The notes under the pieces were generated by a model that saw only the letters and a program-made list of their open reading frames with translations, was not told the origin of the DNA and did no database searches. A stretch of 47,291 nucleotides of DNA from the IMG/VR virus record IMGVR_UViG_3300045988_141056, positions 1 to 47,291 of that record; one strand, 5' to 3'. Origin of the DNA: a virus. The position numbers were made by a program, and so were the translations under genes. Below are positions 18,163 through 29,516 of the stretch, in pieces (positions within the stretch are counted from its first letter, which is position 1; the number at the start of each line of letters is the position of its first letter).

Positions 18163-18895
18163 CTTGTTCTTTTTCTAATTGCTCAAGCCTTTCAGATGCA
18201 AGGTCTAGCATATATGACATAATCCCAGCGATATTTCTGATATCTTTATACTTGCTAATACGCTGGACGGTTTCAGCAAACTTATTGAACTCTTCTCTGT
18301 CTGCCATATATTTCTTTGCAGAAGGCTCTAGCTGGTCAATGAAATCTTCAAACCTATCAGCTCCGCTCTTCATGAACATGATATAGATTGGTTCAAAATC
18401 AAACTCTACATCAATATCATCTGTTGGGATACTCGGCACTTCCACGTTGATTTCTAAATCAGTCAAGCCACTTGCTAATTTAGCGTTGATATCTTCAATG
18501 CTATCATACAGCTGTTTTAATAGTTCTTGGTTGTCGTAACCAGACAACGCATTGTGTGCAAGCTGCTTTGAGATAATCTCATCCTCACTCAGCTCTCGTT
18601 CGATAACCAGTACAGGGATAACCATCAAGCCAGCAGAACGACTAGCACGTGTTCTATGGTGACCAGAAATAATCATAAACTCATGACGGTCTCCTGGCAT
18701 TTTCCATACCAACGGCAAGCTTTCGAGCATGCCTTCATCTCGGATATTTTCGGTCAACCGACGGAACTTGTCATCATCCATGACACGTGCGTTGACATCT
18801 CGCTCTCGCAATTGGTCAAGGTGAACCTTCCAAATTGCTAACCCAGGCGACAGTTCCAACAATCGCTCTGGCTCAGGTATATCAGTTTTTGCCAT
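18134..18895 (-). CDS. ParB-like nuclease-domain (ParB/Srx fold) protein
   Basis: N-terminal region with the motif MIISGHHRTRAS resembling the ParB N-terminal domain. Overlaps the upstream putative methyltransferase gene by 14 nt. Confidence 0.45.
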   Translation of the reverse strand: MAKTDIPEPERLLELSPGLAIWKVHLDQLRERDVNARVMDDDKFRRLTENIRDEGMLESLPLVWKMPGDRHEFMIISGHHRTRASRSAGLMVIPVLVIERELSEDEIISKQLAHNALSGYDNQELLKQLYDSIEDINAKLASGLTDLEINVEVPSIPTDDIDVEFDFEPIYIMFMKSGADRFEDFIDQLEPSAKKYMADREEFNKFAETVQRISKYKDIRNIAGIMSYMLDLASERLEQLEKEQDEKEEEENE

Positions 18896-20378
18896 TCTTT
18901 TGCTCCTTTTTTAGCCTTAACTTTTCTAAATACTCTTTCTCTTCTTCTAAAAATACCTTCACAACATCAGAGAATGTATCGTCACGAAAATCAGCCCAGT
19001 ACATAATTTTATACATACCATTAGGCATCCTTTCCCTCTTCTCAATCTTCAAGATACCACTATTCAATTTCACATGACGGTACTTGGCTAAGCATGTAGT
19101 CCTCAGCCCTTTTACAGTCCAATACCTATTTACCTTTGCAGTAGTATTCCTAATCACTTCACCAAACTCAGCAGACGTGATAGCCCACATCAACAGCCTA
19201 TTAACTCTTGGATACCTTTTTGAAGGTGCAGAAAAGCCATAATTCTCAAACACGTAGTCACTCTGTAGCCTGTAGAGCTGCCCCAACATCACAGCTAGCG
19301 TAGAAAAGACCTTGCCATCAACCAGCATTAGATAATACGCCTCGCCTTTCGTGTTACCCAATTTATGAGCCCAAACATCACGATAATACAAAGCAACCTG
19401 TTCCTTCACAGGTACAAACATGATTTTGCTGTCCTCTCTTATTTCATCATTTGCACCAAACATCGGTGCTTTATACGGCACAAACTTCTTACGTCCAAAC
19501 GATTTAATCGAACGATTGCTCTCAAAATCGTCAAGCAGTTCTGGCTTAGTCATCAGCCAATAGTCCACCTTATTGACCTTATACTCTTTGGCATAGATAA
19601 CCTCTCTCGGGTCAAATCCATCTACACTACGGCTACGATACCAGATAAACGGTGTACTCAGCTCACGAGACTTCTCATAAATACCCTTGTATTCCTTGCT
19701 AAAATTGAACTCGGCAATCTGCGGGTCAAACTTGATACGTTCACCGAAGTCAAACATTTTTGTGTAACCTTTAGCGAATACTGGAGGGTTCACGACTACT
19801 AAATGACCTTCTGGCTTATCTTCAACGTCATCTCGCAGGTCTTTGATTTCATAATGAATACCCTTAAAGTACTTAACCATCTCTTGAATCTGACCCCTCA
19901 TCCTGTCAATGTGATAATCTTTACGCATTTTTAGGTCATCAAGCTGAGGTTTCATATAGTGGATTTTCTCCATCTGACAAACCTTCATAATCCACATCAA
20001 AAAAGCAGCTTTATCGATATCAGAATCGTACGTGTCATATTCTATCTTTAGGTTAGGCTCTAGCTCAAAGTCTATACAATCAATACCTACACCGCTAAAC
20101 AAATACCCCAGCAAAGAAGAAAACAGCGACACGTCGCTGGTATAAATATTCTCCCTGTCATACCCAGCTTCTATAGCACACCTAGCTAGCGTGAACTGCC
20201 CAACGGCGGGCAGATGAATTACTGGATGAGTCTTGACGAGATGCTTCAGCACTGCAACGAGGTAACGCCGCTGGTCTGCGGGCGTGTGTCCAAGGAAAAT
20301 TGACTCTGCTTTGCTGACTGCCATCTTCGCCTCCTTTTGTTCAAAATAATTTCTTGGCTGAGGGGGAAGGATTTGCAC
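18882..20378 (-). CDS. putative DNA N6-adenine methyltransferase-like protein (alpha-class motif order) with a long C-terminal extension
   Basis: A motif I-like segment (AVGQFTLARC, about aa 58) and an NPPV segment (HLVVVNPPVF, about aa 205) are spaced like FxGxG and DPPY in Dam-type enzymes. The match is weak. Confidence 0.35.
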   Translation of the reverse strand: MQILPPQPRNYFEQKEAKMAVSKAESIFLGHTPADQRRYLVAVLKHLVKTHPVIHLPAVGQFTLARCAIEAGYDRENIYTSDVSLFSSLLGYLFSGVGIDCIDFELEPNLKIEYDTYDSDIDKAAFLMWIMKVCQMEKIHYMKPQLDDLKMRKDYHIDRMRGQIQEMVKYFKGIHYEIKDLRDDVEDKPEGHLVVVNPPVFAKGYTKMFDFGERIKFDPQIAEFNFSKEYKGIYEKSRELSTPFIWYRSRSVDGFDPREVIYAKEYKVNKVDYWLMTKPELLDDFESNRSIKSFGRKKFVPYKAPMFGANDEIREDSKIMFVPVKEQVALYYRDVWAHKLGNTKGEAYYLMLVDGKVFSTLAVMLGQLYRLQSDYVFENYGFSAPSKRYPRVNRLLMWAITSAEFGEVIRNTTAKVNRYWTVKGLRTTCLAKYRHVKLNSGILKIEKRERMPNGMYKIMYWADFRDDTFSDVVKVFLEEEKEYLEKLRLKKEQKNGKN

Positions 20379-20472
20379 CCGCCATTGCCTGTTTCAGAAA
20401 CAGGTAGCCTACTATTAGCTGACCCCTCAATAGTAGCTGTGCTACGTTTTAATATTAGCACAGCTTTTTGAT

Positions 20473-21333
20473 TTAGTCTACAACTAAACCGTATTCAGCA
20501 CATTTTTCAAAACCGCCGTGATAGGTAACCCAATCACCAGCCTTGCTGATAACCTCATCAAACAGTACCGTCTTCTTTGAGCCATCCTCAAACACGAACG
20601 TAACAGCACAATCGCCGATTGCACACCTTGCTTTCACTGCCATATTTTTCTCTTGTGCAAGCATAAAGCAGTAGATGTTCACACTAACGTCTGCCTTGGT
20701 TAGGTCTTTGTTCCACATCGCACCACCGCCAAGCGGGCATTCAACTGAATAAAAATCACAAGCCAGCTTCCTGCCTGTTAGTCCAGTATCCACGTCGATA
20801 CCACCCGTCCATTCTCCAATCGGATTGACAAGCAGCTTGTAGCCTAGCTTTTGGCAAAAATCATCCAAGTCAGCTGTCTTAACATTAGACCAGGATACGA
20901 CTCCATCTCCGCCAGAAGTCAATACAAGCTTTCCATCAAATGGATATTTCTGGTAGATTTTCTGAGCTAACTGCTTAGCTTCCATGTGAGTTTTCGGCAT
21001 TGGATAACCAGCAAACAATCCCTGGTCTCCGCAATAACTGTGTTTCTGGGACTGATTTTTTGCAAGCTTCTCATCCTGCTTGTAGTAATCAAACTCAACC
21101 GACTTAATATCTGGGCAAATCCTTTGACAAATGAGAATAACCTCCATCTGCTTGATATCTTCACTCGTCTCAACAATCACATAAGCCTTGCCATGACCGA
21201 CCATAACCTCGGCTGCCATTGTTGCTTTATGATTCTTTGAATAAGCCAAATCCACTAACGCACCAGCAATCCTATCGGCGATACGGTCTGGATGAGATGG
21301 ACTAACTACTTCGCTATATTCAGTTTTGTTCAT
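20473..21333 (-). CDS. metK: S-adenosylmethionine synthetase (MetK-like, truncated 286 aa)
   Basis: Matches MetK signature blocks: SHPDRIADRIAGALVD (GHPDKIADQISD), CGDQGLFAGY (GAGDQGLMFGYA), GGIDVDTGLTGRKL (GGPMGDCGLTGRKI) and GGGAMWNKDLTKADVS (GGGAFSGKDPSKVDRS). Confidence 0.8.
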   Translation of the reverse strand: MNKTEYSEVVSPSHPDRIADRIAGALVDLAYSKNHKATMAAEVMVGHGKAYVIVETSEDIKQMEVILICQRICPDIKSVEFDYYKQDEKLAKNQSQKHSYCGDQGLFAGYPMPKTHMEAKQLAQKIYQKYPFDGKLVLTSGGDGVVSWSNVKTADLDDFCQKLGYKLLVNPIGEWTGGIDVDTGLTGRKLACDFYSVECPLGGGAMWNKDLTKADVSVNIYCFMLAQEKNMAVKARCAIGDCAVTFVFEDGSKKTVLFDEVISKAGDWVTYHGGFEKCAEYGLVVD

Positions 21334-27272: not shown

Positions 27273-27605
27273 TTAACTAAAATCACCATCCATAAAACGA
27301 TAGCCATCAATATCCATTTCGTATAAGCCGTCATTATAAGGCTCTCTGCCTATCTCTTGTTTTTTGGCGACCATCTCCCAAAAGTCTTTATGGCTTACTC
27401 TCTCACCGCACTCGTTATAAATTAGCCTGTTTTTTAGCCACTGCCTCATACTGCTGACATCTTTGTAGTATTCACCGCCATTGAAGGCGAACAGAAAACG
27501 CCAGCCAGCACTAGATTTGCCGAGATGAACTCCATTCTTACAGAGGTGCTCTTCACCACAGTTATAGCACTCTACCATGCCTTCAGTATAATAATTCATT
27601 CCCAC
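27273..27605 (-). CDS. hypothetical Cys-containing protein (GTG start)
   Basis: 110-aa ORF with an AAGGAGG RBS. Confidence 0.45.
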   Translation of the reverse strand: MGMNYYTEGMVECYNCGEEHLCKNGVHLGKSSAGWRFLFAFNGGEYYKDVSSMRQWLKNRLIYNECGERVSHKDFWEMVAKKQEIGREPYNDGLYEMDIDGYRFMDGDFS

Positions 27606-28337
27606 TTTTCGCCTCCTTCTTTAGTATTGAGTATTTGCACATCTTACACAGTGCAATCTCGCAGAAAAGCACTGTATTATTCAACCGCATAACTGGTACT
27701 GGCAAGAGCGGTGGATACTTTAAGGCTGCTTCTTTTAATTCCTGACGGTCAAGCTAACACTTTGGTACGCAACCTCGCACGCAGAGCTGTCTCGTTACGG
27801 CAGATGCTTCAACTATTGCCAGTATCGGCTATATAAGATGATGATTTGCCGAGTTTTAATTTCCTCGAATGTGAGGGAATTAGGTTTCGTAAAGTCACAT
27901 CACACGCCACGTCGCTTTGCTTTAAGTCGGATTTGGAACTCCCGTCACCGCACATTCCACATTCTGCCTCAAATGCGCTTTTTGAGGGCTTACCGTCGGG
28001 TATAGCGTCTACTATTCCGCCACTTATATAGCCAGTTGATAGCACCAAGCGCAGCGTATCGTAATACAATGAGGTAACGTTATTCATTGTACTGTAATAC
28101 ATTGGTGCTACCAGTTGAACAGATGATACACGTTGCACTGCGTTGAGAATATTAAAGAACCGACTCACAACGTTTCACGATTTGTTTTCTGTTTATACGC
28201 TGGGTGGGCTAGCTCATAAACAGCGAAGTCTCCCTGTGCATATCACCTGTCCAGTTATACGGTTGAAAATGTTAATGTTCTATTGGGTACGTTTCGTACC
28301 CGTTTGAGCAGTTTAACGACTTGCTCAGGTCAACTAG
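27606..28337 (-). ncRNA. candidate large structured non-coding RNA, or an otherwise unexplained GC-rich non-coding island
   Basis: About 730 nt with no credible ORF. The only ORF is 119 aa with a GTG start and no RBS. GC is visibly higher than in the flanking sequence. Several local hairpins are present, for example gggtacg-ttt-cgtaccc at 28287..28303 and gcctcaaa...tttgagggc at 27966..27989. It is transcribed downstream of promoter P5. Confidence 0.3.
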
Positions 28338-28520
28338 CTAATCTTCTGGATTTTCCAAATCTTCTTCTGCCTCTTCTCTGGTAAGATACACATTGCCTTC
28401 TCTGAGGGCTGCGTTGTCATTCATTGTATCATACCAAGTCCAGGATAAAATTATCTTACGGTCTTCTGAGAGAGAAAAGTATTGTTGACCGATTTCTGGT
28501 TTAGTTGCTTGATTGTTCAT
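28338..28520 (-). CDS. hypothetical acidic protein (first gene after P5)
   Basis: 60-aa ORF with the conserved leader. Confidence 0.45.
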   Translation of the reverse strand: MNNQATKPEIGQQYFSLSEDRKIILSWTWYDTMNDNAALREGNVYLTREEAEEDLENPED

Positions 28521-28554
28521 AGGGTTCGCCTCCTAGTTAATTATTTATATTATT

Positions 28555-28583
28555 ATTGTAGCAAACCTTACTAGAATTGTCAA
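28555..28583 (-). promoter_or_regulatory. sigma-70-like promoter P5 (TTGACA, 17 nt spacer, TACAAT) with the conserved cassette
   Basis: -10 at 28555..28560 and -35 at 28578..28583. CGTAAACTCTTGACA, with an upstream T-tract. Confidence 0.65.
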
Positions 28584-28613
28584 GAGTTTACGAGAAAAAA
28601 GTCTACAATTTTT

Positions 28614-28844
28614 CTAGTCGTCTAAATCCAGCAAATTGTCTACGTCTTCCTTGCTCATCTCATCTACCGCTTGCTGGACAACACCCTTGGCTAGTTTCTT
28701 CTCAACGATTCGCAATGTCTTGATAAGAGCACGAACTCCACTAATATCCAATTCCATTTCATCACTTTTGATAGAACTAGAGTAGCCTTCTTTGACCTTA
28801 AATAATGTAATTGTAATTTTTCCTACTTGCTCTTCTTTACTCAC
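28614..28844 (-). CDS. hypothetical acidic protein
   Basis: 76-aa ORF. Confidence 0.4.
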   Translation of the reverse strand: MSKEEQVGKITITLFKVKEGYSSSIKSDEMELDISGVRALIKTLRIVEKKLAKGVVQQAVDEMSKEDVDNLLDLDD

Positions 28845-28857
28845 TTCTTTTCTCCTT

Positions 28858-29067
28858 CTAATTTACTGATTTTATTGCGATAGCTTTTCCACGACGGCTA
28901 ATACGTCCACCTTTTGCACCAGCCTTTCTAGCTAGTTCACGGTTTGCGTAAAAACCACCTTTGGTACTTCTCTTGCCACCAATAGCCCCAATCTCTCTAT
29001 AAAAATTAGGGTTGTTAGCTAAGTTAGCCTTAGCTGCCTTCCTTCCGCCTTCTACAGTCCCTGCCAT
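28858..29067 (-). CDS. KGG-repeat stress-protein-like small protein
   Basis: The motifs GGKRSTKGGF and AGAKGGR resemble the KGG stress-induced repeat. Start at the ATG at 29067, which overlaps the upstream stop (TAATG). Confidence 0.45.
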   Translation of the reverse strand: MAGTVEGGRKAAKANLANNPNFYREIGAIGGKRSTKGGFYANRELARKAGAKGGRISRRGKAIAIKSVN

Positions 29068-29516
29068 TACGCCTCCAATCTTATGACATTTAGGATTGAT
29101 ATCGAAATACACGCAATCGCTACAAGGACGATTACAACAATTACCCACGCTGGTATCGGAAACTTCTTTGATGAATCGTAGAAGTGCCTACGAAACAGCT
29201 TGGTATTCTCGTACTTCAACTGCAAGTCATCCAGCACGGATTTCTTGTAGTTATTGCGATGCTCAGCCAGCCACTGGTTGACTACGTTTTCGGTGCAAAT
29301 ACCTATCTTATCTGGGCGACCAGGCTGCACTTTCACATAGTTAGTAGTGAGATGACCAAGCTCTTCGCGTTTTAGTAGCTCATAAGCTGAAAACTCTTCC
29401 AGGGCAATCCTGTAAGCTGTCCTCGGGCTTTTGGCTTCTATCAATCGGGTGAAGTTTCCGTTGCTATATTGCAACTTATACTTCCTCGATGAATCTTTAT
29501 TTTTATTGAATAACAT
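29067..29516 (-). CDS. hypothetical protein with a C-terminal TM anchor (first gene after P4)
   Basis: 149-aa ORF with a hydrophobic C-terminus. Confidence 0.45.
   Translation of the reverse strand: MLFNKNKDSSRKYKLQYSNGNFTRLIEAKSPRTAYRIALEEFSAYELLKREELGHLTTNYVKVQPGRPDKIGICTENVVNQWLAEHRNNYKKSVLDDLQLKYENTKLFRRHFYDSSKKFPIPAWVIVVIVLVAIACISISILNVIRLEA

Follow-up and report, generated by a model that had tools for sequence, protein, structure and literature searches.

What does a phage encode in 732 nucleotides (nt) that hold no credible open reading frame (ORF) on either strand? The question is raised by positions 27606–28337 of IMG/VR record IMGVR_UViG_3300045988_141056, whose 47,291 nt are the whole stretch of DNA analysed here and are referred to as the window. 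A preliminary description, made from the sequence alone, had proposed a large structured RNA at this position, either of the GOLLD or ROOL class or a novel one. Our analysis indicates that the gap very probably encodes a member of a structured RNA family with a frame-and-cargo architecture, in which a leader, a closing helix and short linkers form the frame and hairpin arms form the cargo. The second option thus holds, and covariation among homologues is positive. Taken as a whole, the data are likely to be best explained by an undescribed RNA of Saccharibacteria phages and prophages with a constant frame and exchangeable arms. The comparative evidence establishes a discrete, sharply bounded and strand-specific structured RNA module inside early operons.

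Coding content and folding of the gap

The gap is flanked by a 60-amino-acid (aa) ORF (28338–28520, minus strand) and a 110-aa ORF (27273–27605, minus strand), and all local genes lie on the minus strand. The claim that the gap is free of ORFs was borne out over its whole extent. TAA, TAG and TGA stops occur in each of the three minus-strand frames in a six-frame translation of the gap, so recoding of a single stop codon opens no frame. The sole sizeable ORF in the gap encodes 119 aa from a GTG start (27809–28168, minus strand). A Pfam search with this ORF returned no match, and its frame is not conserved, with 2–7 stops in all 17 homologous elements that aligned over at least 100 residues in tblastn. 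Stop-free runs across the family have a median of 61 codons versus 58 after shuffling. A protein-coding gap was rejected on the basis of the six-frame translation, single-stop recoding, the Pfam search and frame conservation. The preliminary description had named homologues with a conserved coding frame as one observation that would speak against an RNA, and none was found among the aligned elements.

The gap had also been described as GC-rich. This is correct in comparison with the immediate 2-kb flanks (GC fraction 0.440 versus 0.391 and 0.410) but not with the window average (0.433), as the gap ranks at the 56th percentile. Coding-strand GC skew sets the gap apart more clearly than GC content does, as it is lost there (−0.04, against a median of −0.17; 94th percentile). 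Relative to shuffles, the gap has minimum free energy (MFE) z-scores of −3.8 (minus strand) and −4.0 (plus strand), and it contains long-range inverted repeats, notably 27680–27696 with 28251–28267.

A family of elements in Saccharibacteria phages and prophages

With the 110-aa protein as query, two viral contigs, L001 and L002, were found. L001 has a 645-nt gap at the position matching that of the window, and in L002 the homologous sequence and the 110-aa homologue lie 2.7 kb apart. The three copies have a common closing inverted repeat and several identical blocks, and the material between these differs in length. The shared blocks were used as exact patterns against IMG/VR (two blocks of the first arm, M1), GTDB species-representative genomes and metagenome contigs, and a second IMG/VR scan used the 3' strand of the closing helix alone as its pattern. 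The 60-aa upstream protein, used as bait in viral contigs, yielded no relatives. At least 214 homologous elements were retrieved, of which at least 176 are unique after orientation and de-duplication, with lengths of 126 to ~860 nt and one element per locus. Family counts in this paper are lower bounds, the family being larger, and fractions refer to the matches listed; more than 200 copies even from exact-pattern searches make it an abundant RNA family. In L064 (IMGVR_UViG_3300009962_000111), a second copy of the helix 3' strand lies ~407 nt beyond the end of an 864-nt element and may be a remnant of a second frame; this extra copy inflated one parsed element length to 1271 nt.

The GTDB search gave 12 genome hits. 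A complete element is present in nine, all of them metagenome-assembled genomes (MAGs) of Candidatus Saccharibacteria/Nanosynbacter, and the other three lack the helix and were rejected as chance pattern matches. In the one copy examined for its genomic setting (L131), the element is located ~3 kb within an integrated prophage, which borders host genes resembling rluD and holB. Some element-bearing metagenome contigs are labelled 'human oral metagenome'. The window itself is a tailed-phage genome with genes for a terminase, a portal, a LysM endolysin, RecT and a ParB-like protein, among others, and flanking gene families are common to the window and the element-bearing contigs. Given the Saccharibacteria genome hits and these common flanking families, the Lactobacillales context assumed in the preliminary description is wrong: nine of nine confirmed genomic copies belong to Saccharibacteria/Nanosynbacter. 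The family is confined, as far as seen, to Saccharibacteria phages and prophages. To our knowledge, the phage biology of Saccharibacteria, a human-oral lineage of the candidate phyla radiation (CPR), is almost unexplored, and the element is a ready marker for spotting such phages in metagenomes. The gap and its flanks had no DNA match among 50,697 deposited phage records in near and distant search modes (blastn word size 11). The open full-text literature, with subscription journals outside the search, contained no description of the RNA by topic or by conserved sequence. The family is apparently undescribed and new as far as checked.

The constant frame

The constant part of the family is the frame, and the arms are swappable. 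The frame consists of the leader ACAUUAAC, a 16-base-pair (bp) helix (UCAACCGYAKAACUGG / CCAGUUMUGCGGUUGA) and UCAACUGG linkers, all of which are present in the window. The core there spans 588 nt (27680–28267) on the minus, gene-sense strand, with the terminal helix closed around four hairpin arms and an exact UCAACUGG linker after two of these (Table 1). Instead of the single ~730-nt fold first envisaged, the element is a 588-nt core with ~60 nt of structured leader and forms a ring of separate hairpin arms. The window holds a single frame, with 0 and 1 mismatch to the pattern in the two helix strands, two exact linkers and one match to R1, the covariance model built for arm M1. Unconstrained single-sequence MFE folding of the window copy reproduces the terminal helix (16/16 pairs) and the closing stems of arms M1 (10/10), M2 (9/9) and M4 (9/9), and the M3 stem is visible in the structure string.

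The terminal helix is paired in 98.1% of cases across the family, compared to 21–40% when the partners are slid by 1–3 columns. Pairing is 97–100% at positions 1–16 and falls to 15–60% immediately outside, and conservation ends exactly at the last base pair. One helix position swaps U:A (19 rows) for G:C (16 rows), which amounts to 16 double changes, and none of 500 shuffles reached the observed covariation score. Mismatches in the helix are mostly of the G·U type rather than the A·C type (~40:7). The linkers are near-invariant: 192 NCAACTGG copies occur in 82 unique elements versus ~2.3 expected, the reverse complement occurs 0 times, and 187 of the 192 copies read exactly TCAACTGG. The number of linkers per element ranges from 0 to 5.

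Of 176 unique elements, 168 have ACATTAA no more than 16 nt upstream of the helix, and optional covarying hairpins precede the leader. The gggtacg-ttt-cgtaccc hairpin pointed out in the preliminary description exists at 28285–28301 and recurs in relatives with compensatory changes (variants GGGTACAAATTGTACCC, GGGTACGATTTGTATCC and CAGGTACAAAACGTGCCC); it belongs to the leader, outside the core. In many relatives it begins 2 nt past the stop codon of an upstream gene for a protein with KGG repeats. Inspection of 83 upstream regions, without a formal test, showed no convincing −35/−10 pair at a fixed distance that would indicate a dedicated promoter in the leader. A different region of ~150 nt, closed by a long inverted repeat (ACATACACAC ... 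GTGTGTATGT), lies upstream of the element in L045, L091, L031 and L070 and looks like another structured domain outside the frame.

Exchangeable arms

Each element carries 1–6 self-contained hairpin arms of 34–335 nt, and each arm is closed by a stem of ~9–13 bp flush with the linkers. At least seven uninterrupted pairs at the linkers close 88% of the 284 unique arms, with a median of 10 versus 0 after shuffling. Mismatches in the arm stems are again dominated by the G·U type (285 versus 70 of the A·C type, ~4:1). Crude clustering gave ~41 arm families, and the same arm recurs in different combinations and orders. The preliminary description had proposed a covariation analysis of homologous regions; covarying pairs were found in the helix as well as in arm stems.

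M1 has a long closing stem and two variable hairpins around the invariant junction strands UAUGCACA, GUGAAACGUUGUGAG and GCAGUGCAACGUGUAU, as seen in the alignment and its RNAalifold consensus. Pairing in 43 distinct sequences is 96.8% versus 22–52% with slid partners, and double-sided changes number 55 versus 18.3 ± 3.3 after shuffling, a value that 0 of 500 shuffles reached. Model R1 gave a single hit on the window (106.8 bits, E=1.7e-23), whose copy was in the seed alignment, and recovered eight further M1 copies truncated where the stored loci end. M1 was first taken for the core of the element because the search patterns had been derived from it. Among the 99 unique elements retrieved by the helix alone, 66 contain the full M1; in 21 a plain hairpin with M1's closing stem takes its place, and others have no M1 at all (e.g., L285, L271 and L293). 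M1 was rejected as the defining core since one third of the elements from the helix-only search do without it.

The closing stem of M2 is 96% paired versus 21–48% with slid partners, double changes occur in five of its nine pairs, and 0 of 500 shuffles reached the observed value. The direct repeat TGTAATACA(A/T)TG, which had also been noticed from the letters alone, is present at 28056–28071 and 28089–28104 and lies in an imperfect palindrome of this arm. M3 is a mosaic arm: in an alignment of 39 unique homologues, a conserved frame (GUGGCGGAAUAG.AGACGC ... GUGAUGUGAC ... GCAAAUCAUCA) holds swappable sub-domains. Its 5' part (GUGGCGGAAUAG.AGACGC) presumably resembles the D-arm of a class-II tRNA or tRNA-Leu, a likeness that the tRNA model did not confirm, and the D-arm-like 20-mer occurs in 25 unique arms. 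M4 occupies the last slot, which holds a tRNA-Tyr or an 89-nt arm in other members. With only seven near-identical copies, M4 has no covariation power.

A tRNA or tRNA-like arm is present in 18 of 176 unique elements according to ARAGORN or Rfam, always in fixed slots. The tRNA-Tyr(GTA) arm is always the last one, scores 46–48 bits, and has as its CCA the first three bases of the helix 3' strand (e.g., in L002). The first slot always holds the tRNA-Met(CAT)-like arms or a tRNA-like arm with a 6-nt anticodon loop, which start 3 nt past the helix. All tRNA-type arms are non-canonical, as the Met-like arms lack U33 and the Tyr arms have conserved acceptor-stem mismatches. The element in the window contains no tRNA detectable by covariance model or ARAGORN. 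In the arm-rich loci scanned, no arm other than the tRNA-type ones matches any Rfam family.

Linkers that are far better conserved than the arms and are repeated 0–5 times between hairpins could also be read as a protein sponge, in which single-stranded UCAACUGG motifs sequester an RNA-binding protein, as CsrB/RsmZ do with CsrA, and the arms are mainly spacers. The small basic KGG-repeat gene directly upstream of about half of the elements would fit this idea. We regard it as improbable, as four unique elements are without an internal linker and another 18 contain a single one. The arms are more than spacers, given the invariant junction strands of M1 and the tRNA-like folds. No binding protein was identified, and the KGG gene is not upstream of the other half of the elements.

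RNA or DNA element

The excess of G·U-type over A·C-type mismatches indicates an RNA on the gene-sense strand. The strand specificity of the linker (192:0), the G·U-type excess in arms and helix, and the covariation of internal stems together point to an RNA read in the gene-sense direction. An alternative is a DNA-level element in which RNA structure is incidental, either resembling a miniature inverted-repeat transposable element (MITE) with 16-bp terminal inverted repeats or serving as a recombinase or cassette site (CAACTGG). The helix strands, highly conserved in sequence, do resemble terminal inverted repeats, the arm content is shuffled exactly at the 8-nt repeats, and the flanking genes differ between phages. 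However, a target-site duplication is absent, the 5' flank is a constant leader while the 3' flank is variable, and the element is present in a single copy per locus, with one in the window. Among 80 relatives bearing the KGG gene, 72 have a complete frame, seven run off the end of the stored DNA after showing the leader and the 5' strand, and L380 alone has no trace of the frame in the available stretch. No clear empty site was found. Neighbouring ORFs and flank families include no adjacent transposase or integrase. The one-sided orientation of the linker, the kind of mismatch and the covarying internal stems also speak against a DNA element, which we consider quite unlikely, slightly more so than the sponge.

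Several points weigh against our preferred reading as an RNA of constant frame and exchangeable arms. That the element is transcribed, where its RNA ends lie and how stable it is are matters of inference. What is conserved in the helix and linkers is mainly the sequence itself, and covariation is clear at only one helix position; this would also fit recognition of DNA or by a specific protein. The sequences are related and were found by exact family patterns that miss divergent members; therefore, the counts are not independent events. Much of the interior of M3 lacks covariation power, as does M4. The window copy has no detectable tRNA arm, and other copies carry imperfect tRNA-type arms, which means that the tRNA theme may reflect ancestry and not function. 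Arm shuffling argues against one global fold and says nothing about how the arms act.

Relation to known large RNAs and repeat arrays

Large structured RNAs of bacteria and phages are rare, and OLE, GOLLD, ROOL and raiA each opened structural and functional work. The 4227 models of Rfam 15 were run on the whole window at the gathering threshold and on 27300–28700 at E≤10 with permissive filters. Among the relatives, 16 loci were searched at the gathering threshold, L001 and L002 at E≤1, a minimal member at E≤10 and seven loci with diverse arms at E≤0.5. The gap gave no match at the gathering threshold or at E≤10, and the relatives gave only tRNAs and, in some of them, an unrelated DUF3800-I RNA outside the element. 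This excludes GOLLD, ROOL, introns and riboswitches as modelled in Rfam 15. The DUF3800-I RNA (RF02969, ~81 bits) lies 1–2 kb from the element in L044 (4362–4481), L046 (9610–9729) and L053 (12595–12714) and is absent from the window. A group I or group II intron was rejected on the lack of an Rfam intron match and because the upstream ORF is already closed 70 nt ahead of the helix and the downstream ORF has its own Shine-Dalgarno sequence and start.

The GOLLD or ROOL membership considered in the preliminary description was not supported by the covariance models in the window or in the loci of 25 relatives. ROOL RNAs average 581 nt, occur in phage and prophage contexts near tRNAs and have no known protein partner (PMC5737381), and the 588-nt core is of similar size. 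GOLLD is a large phage and prophage RNA that includes a variable region, and some of its members carry covalently nested tRNAs (PMC12286853). Assembly into homo-oligomeric nanocages is a feature of GOLLD and ROOL (PMC12286853). The phage or prophage location of our elements and the tRNAs nested in some of them, as in the GOLLD linkers, recall that class. Such a location and tRNA or tRNA-like units inside some members of a large structured phage RNA are, however, not diagnostic. The constant part here is a frame only, in contrast to the large conserved 3' domain of GOLLD, and the host phylum is Saccharibacteria. The ROOL covariance model, with six multistem junctions as well as three pseudoknots, found no match, and the interchangeable arm cassettes argue against one conserved global fold such as that of ROOL. 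A frame with swappable arms is unlike the fixed multi-pseudoknot cores described for both classes, and no threshold used gave a match in the window or relatives. At the level of sequence and structure models, the GOLLD/ROOL reading is refuted, and we give a divergent member of either class next to no probability.

Short repeats amid variable sequence in a phage of a parasitic bacterium also recall the setting of TIGR (tandem interspaced guide RNA) arrays with their Tas proteins (PMC12045711). TIGR arrays consist of ~36-nt units with two alternating 8–12-nt repeats and 9-nt spacers, have an adjacent Nop-domain gene and occur in phages of CPR bacteria (PMC12045711). As in TIGR or CRISPR arrays, a conserved short repeat punctuates variable units. 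Unlike those arrays, our element has a closing helix and no adjacent Nop or Cas gene among the proteins scanned. Its arms are structured and 34–335 nt long, with UCAACUGG as the single repeat type. No Nop-domain hit was found in the neighbouring ORFs, in 10 large and 10 further window proteins or in the recurrent flank families. A guide-RNA array is taken together here with a decayed or recoded protein gene, for which the presence of the 119-aa ORF could be cited against its broken frame in every aligned homologue and all three stop codons in every frame; we consider this pair of readings extremely improbable.

Other comparisons concern single features. Polycistronic tRNA arrays, phage tRNA islands and the TMERs of murine gammaherpesvirus 68 (MHV68) place structured units on one transcript with tRNA punctuation. 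The present family is similar in its acceptor-like closing stems, short spacers, real or near-real tRNAs in some slots and the CCA after the last arm. It differs in that most arms are not tRNAs by covariance model and ARAGORN, the spacer is one invariant 8-mer, and a conserved 16-bp helix closes the whole array. The processing stalks of rRNA operons are long helices formed by the 16S and 23S flanks and cut by RNase III. There, too, the two ends of a structured RNA within a longer transcript are joined by a long-range helix, with sharp boundaries at the helix base; in our family, the helix is only 16 bp and encloses swappable arms instead of a single conserved RNA, and cleavage is hypothetical. 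The family is thus closest in kind to GOLLD and ROOL and, in single features, to tRNA arrays, rRNA stalks and repeat arrays, and it is a member of none. A near-invariant frame with interchangeable arms at fixed slots has no counterpart among the families compared, and the element represents a possible link between phage tRNA islands and large ornate RNAs.

Proposed mechanism

We tentatively propose a scaffold or processing mechanism of co-transcription, excision via the helix, and presentation or release of the arms during early infection, which we hold to be possible but less than probable. The RNA would be co-transcribed with early genes from the promoter upstream of the 60-aa ORF. The terminal helix would act as a processing and stabilising stalk and permit excision from the mRNA, as rRNAs are excised from their precursors. 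The intact frame would then present the arms around a flexible multi-helix ring. Since arms shuffle freely, a single global tertiary fold or a ROOL/GOLLD-like cage is less likely than independent arms. Alternatively, the linkers would be cleavage sites at which tRNA-maturation enzymes release the arms: with an acceptor-like closing stem followed by U-CAA for each arm and CCA after the last, RNase P, RNase Z and CCA-type enzymes could carry out the release.

The cargo of tRNA-like and other structured RNAs would act on the host tRNA or translation machinery or decoy tRNA-directed defences. The tRNA flavour of many arms suggests such a role, but these may just as well be descendants of a phage tRNA cluster. 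More speculatively, and with somewhat less confidence than in the mechanism above, the frame might be an RNA 'cassette holder' that expresses, excises and displays exchangeable cargo, with new arms gained and shuffled by recombination at the invariant 8-nt linkers; the cargo would comprise tRNA mimics, decoys and perhaps aptamers or ribozymes. If true, the cassette holder would be an RNA-level analogue of integron or CRISPR-array modularity that phages of ultra-small parasitic bacteria would employ to manipulate or evade those functions of the host that are linked to tRNA and translation. The frame RNA offers a concrete system in which to test how phages deliver several structured RNAs at a time, and the frame could serve as a natural scaffold to express multiple folded RNAs.

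Gene context and other features of the window

The preliminary description had the RNA transcribed from a promoter named P5. A strong sigma-70-like site lies at 28583–28555 on the minus strand and probably drives an operon that holds the 60-aa ORF and the RNA, a co-transcription that we infer. No dedicated promoter was detected between the 60-aa ORF and the RNA in the window. The upstream ORF stops 70 nt short of the helix, and 74 nt separate the end of the element from the GTG with which the 110-aa gene starts. With this start and its Shine-Dalgarno sequence downstream, the RNA sits embedded in the operon.

Table 1. Parts of the element and adjacent signals in the window, in gene-sense order
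Feature	Position	Strand	Details
Sigma-70-like promoter	28555..28583	−	TTGACA, 17-nt spacer, TG-extended TACAAT; 11/12 matches; upstream of the 60-aa ORF
Leader hairpin 1, GAGCA-GUCGUUAAAC-UGCUC	28306..28326	−	21 nt; same hairpin before the element in L102, L113 and L131
Leader hairpin 2, GGGUACG-AAA-CGUACCC	28285..28301	−	17 nt; in most relatives, with compensatory changes
Single-stranded leader block GAACAUUAAC	28271..28280	−	10 nt; directly 5' of the terminal helix
Terminal helix, 5' strand UCAACCGUAUAACUGG	28251..28266	−	16 nt; all 16 pairs in the unconstrained MFE structure
Arm M1	28119..28250	−	132 nt; three-way junction; commonest arm type
Linker 1, UCAACUGG	28111..28118	−	8 nt; exact
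Arm M2, closing stem UAGCACCAA / UUGGUGCUA	28040..28110	−	71 nt; holds the TGTAATACA repeat as an imperfect palindrome
Linker 2, UCAACUGG	28032..28039	−	8 nt; exact
Arm M3, stem GCUAUAUAAG / CUUAUAUAGC	27827..28031	−	205 nt; stem takes in the last G of linker 2
Arm M4, stem UACUGGCAA / UUGCCAGUA	27697..27824	−	128 nt; last slot
Terminal helix, 3' strand CCAGUUAUGCGGUUGA	27681..27696	−	16 nt; first three bases CCA
Hairpin just 3' of the element, ACAGUGC-14 nt-GCACUGU	27648..27675	−	No U-tract; also in L001, not family-wide
Shine-Dalgarno AAGGAGG and GTG start of the 110-aa gene	27603..27618	−	Start of the downstream gene

The short distance to the 110-aa gene, the lack of a terminator in between, and the L001 copy, which precedes a 96%-identical gene, could indicate a cis-regulatory 5' leader (riboswitch or attenuator) of that gene. 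Across the family, however, the Shine-Dalgarno sequence and start of one of at least 10 unrelated genes usually lie 10–80 nt downstream of the helix, where a terminator is rarely present, and the 110-aa homologue in L002 is far removed from the element. Conservation stops at the helix end, short of the Shine-Dalgarno sequence, and no Rfam riboswitch matched. A cis-acting leader is accordingly very unlikely.

Of 196 elements, 95 have the small basic KGG-repeat gene upstream in the same orientation, and in 76 it ends within 120 nt of the helix. The window has a homologue 594 nt upstream (ORF 28858–29148, minus strand; Pfam PF10685, E=2.5e-7). The linkage looks like clade-level synteny, and the KGG-repeat protein is a possible candidate for an RNA-binding partner. 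Clustering of flanking ORFs gave small phage proteins only, with no conserved enzyme-like partner beside the element. An obligate protein partner was rejected, as the KGG gene is not universal and the 110-aa gene is linked in only two to three loci.

A segment of the window comprising the element 3' end and the 110-aa gene (27273–27697) is 93% identical in DNA to L001 3910–4333, whereas L001 and the remainder of the 47-kb window are almost without DNA similarity; the segment looks like a recently exchanged module. The 60-aa ORF has 38–40% identity to the middle of a ~200-aa family, which is the other common upstream neighbour, and has the look of either a truncated remnant or one domain of that family.

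Elsewhere in the window, the Rfam tRNA model scores 41.3 bits (gathering 29) at 20358–20429 on the minus strand, between ORFs 18882–20378 and 20473–21333. The anticodon of this site would be CUG (Gln), its fold z-score is only −0.36 and ARAGORN makes no call; a phage tRNA that is degenerate or unusual may lie here. At ~846–2388 there is another long stretch in which neither strand has an ORF of at least 100 aa, with only ORFs of 40–89 aa and no Rfam hit; it could hold regulatory or other non-coding features or genome ends. The early/middle region also encodes, on the minus strand, KwaB-like (PF16162; 16116–17084), phage DAM-like/GNAT-like (18882–20378) and SAM-synthetase-like (20473–21333) proteins, which may be related to counter-defence or methylation.

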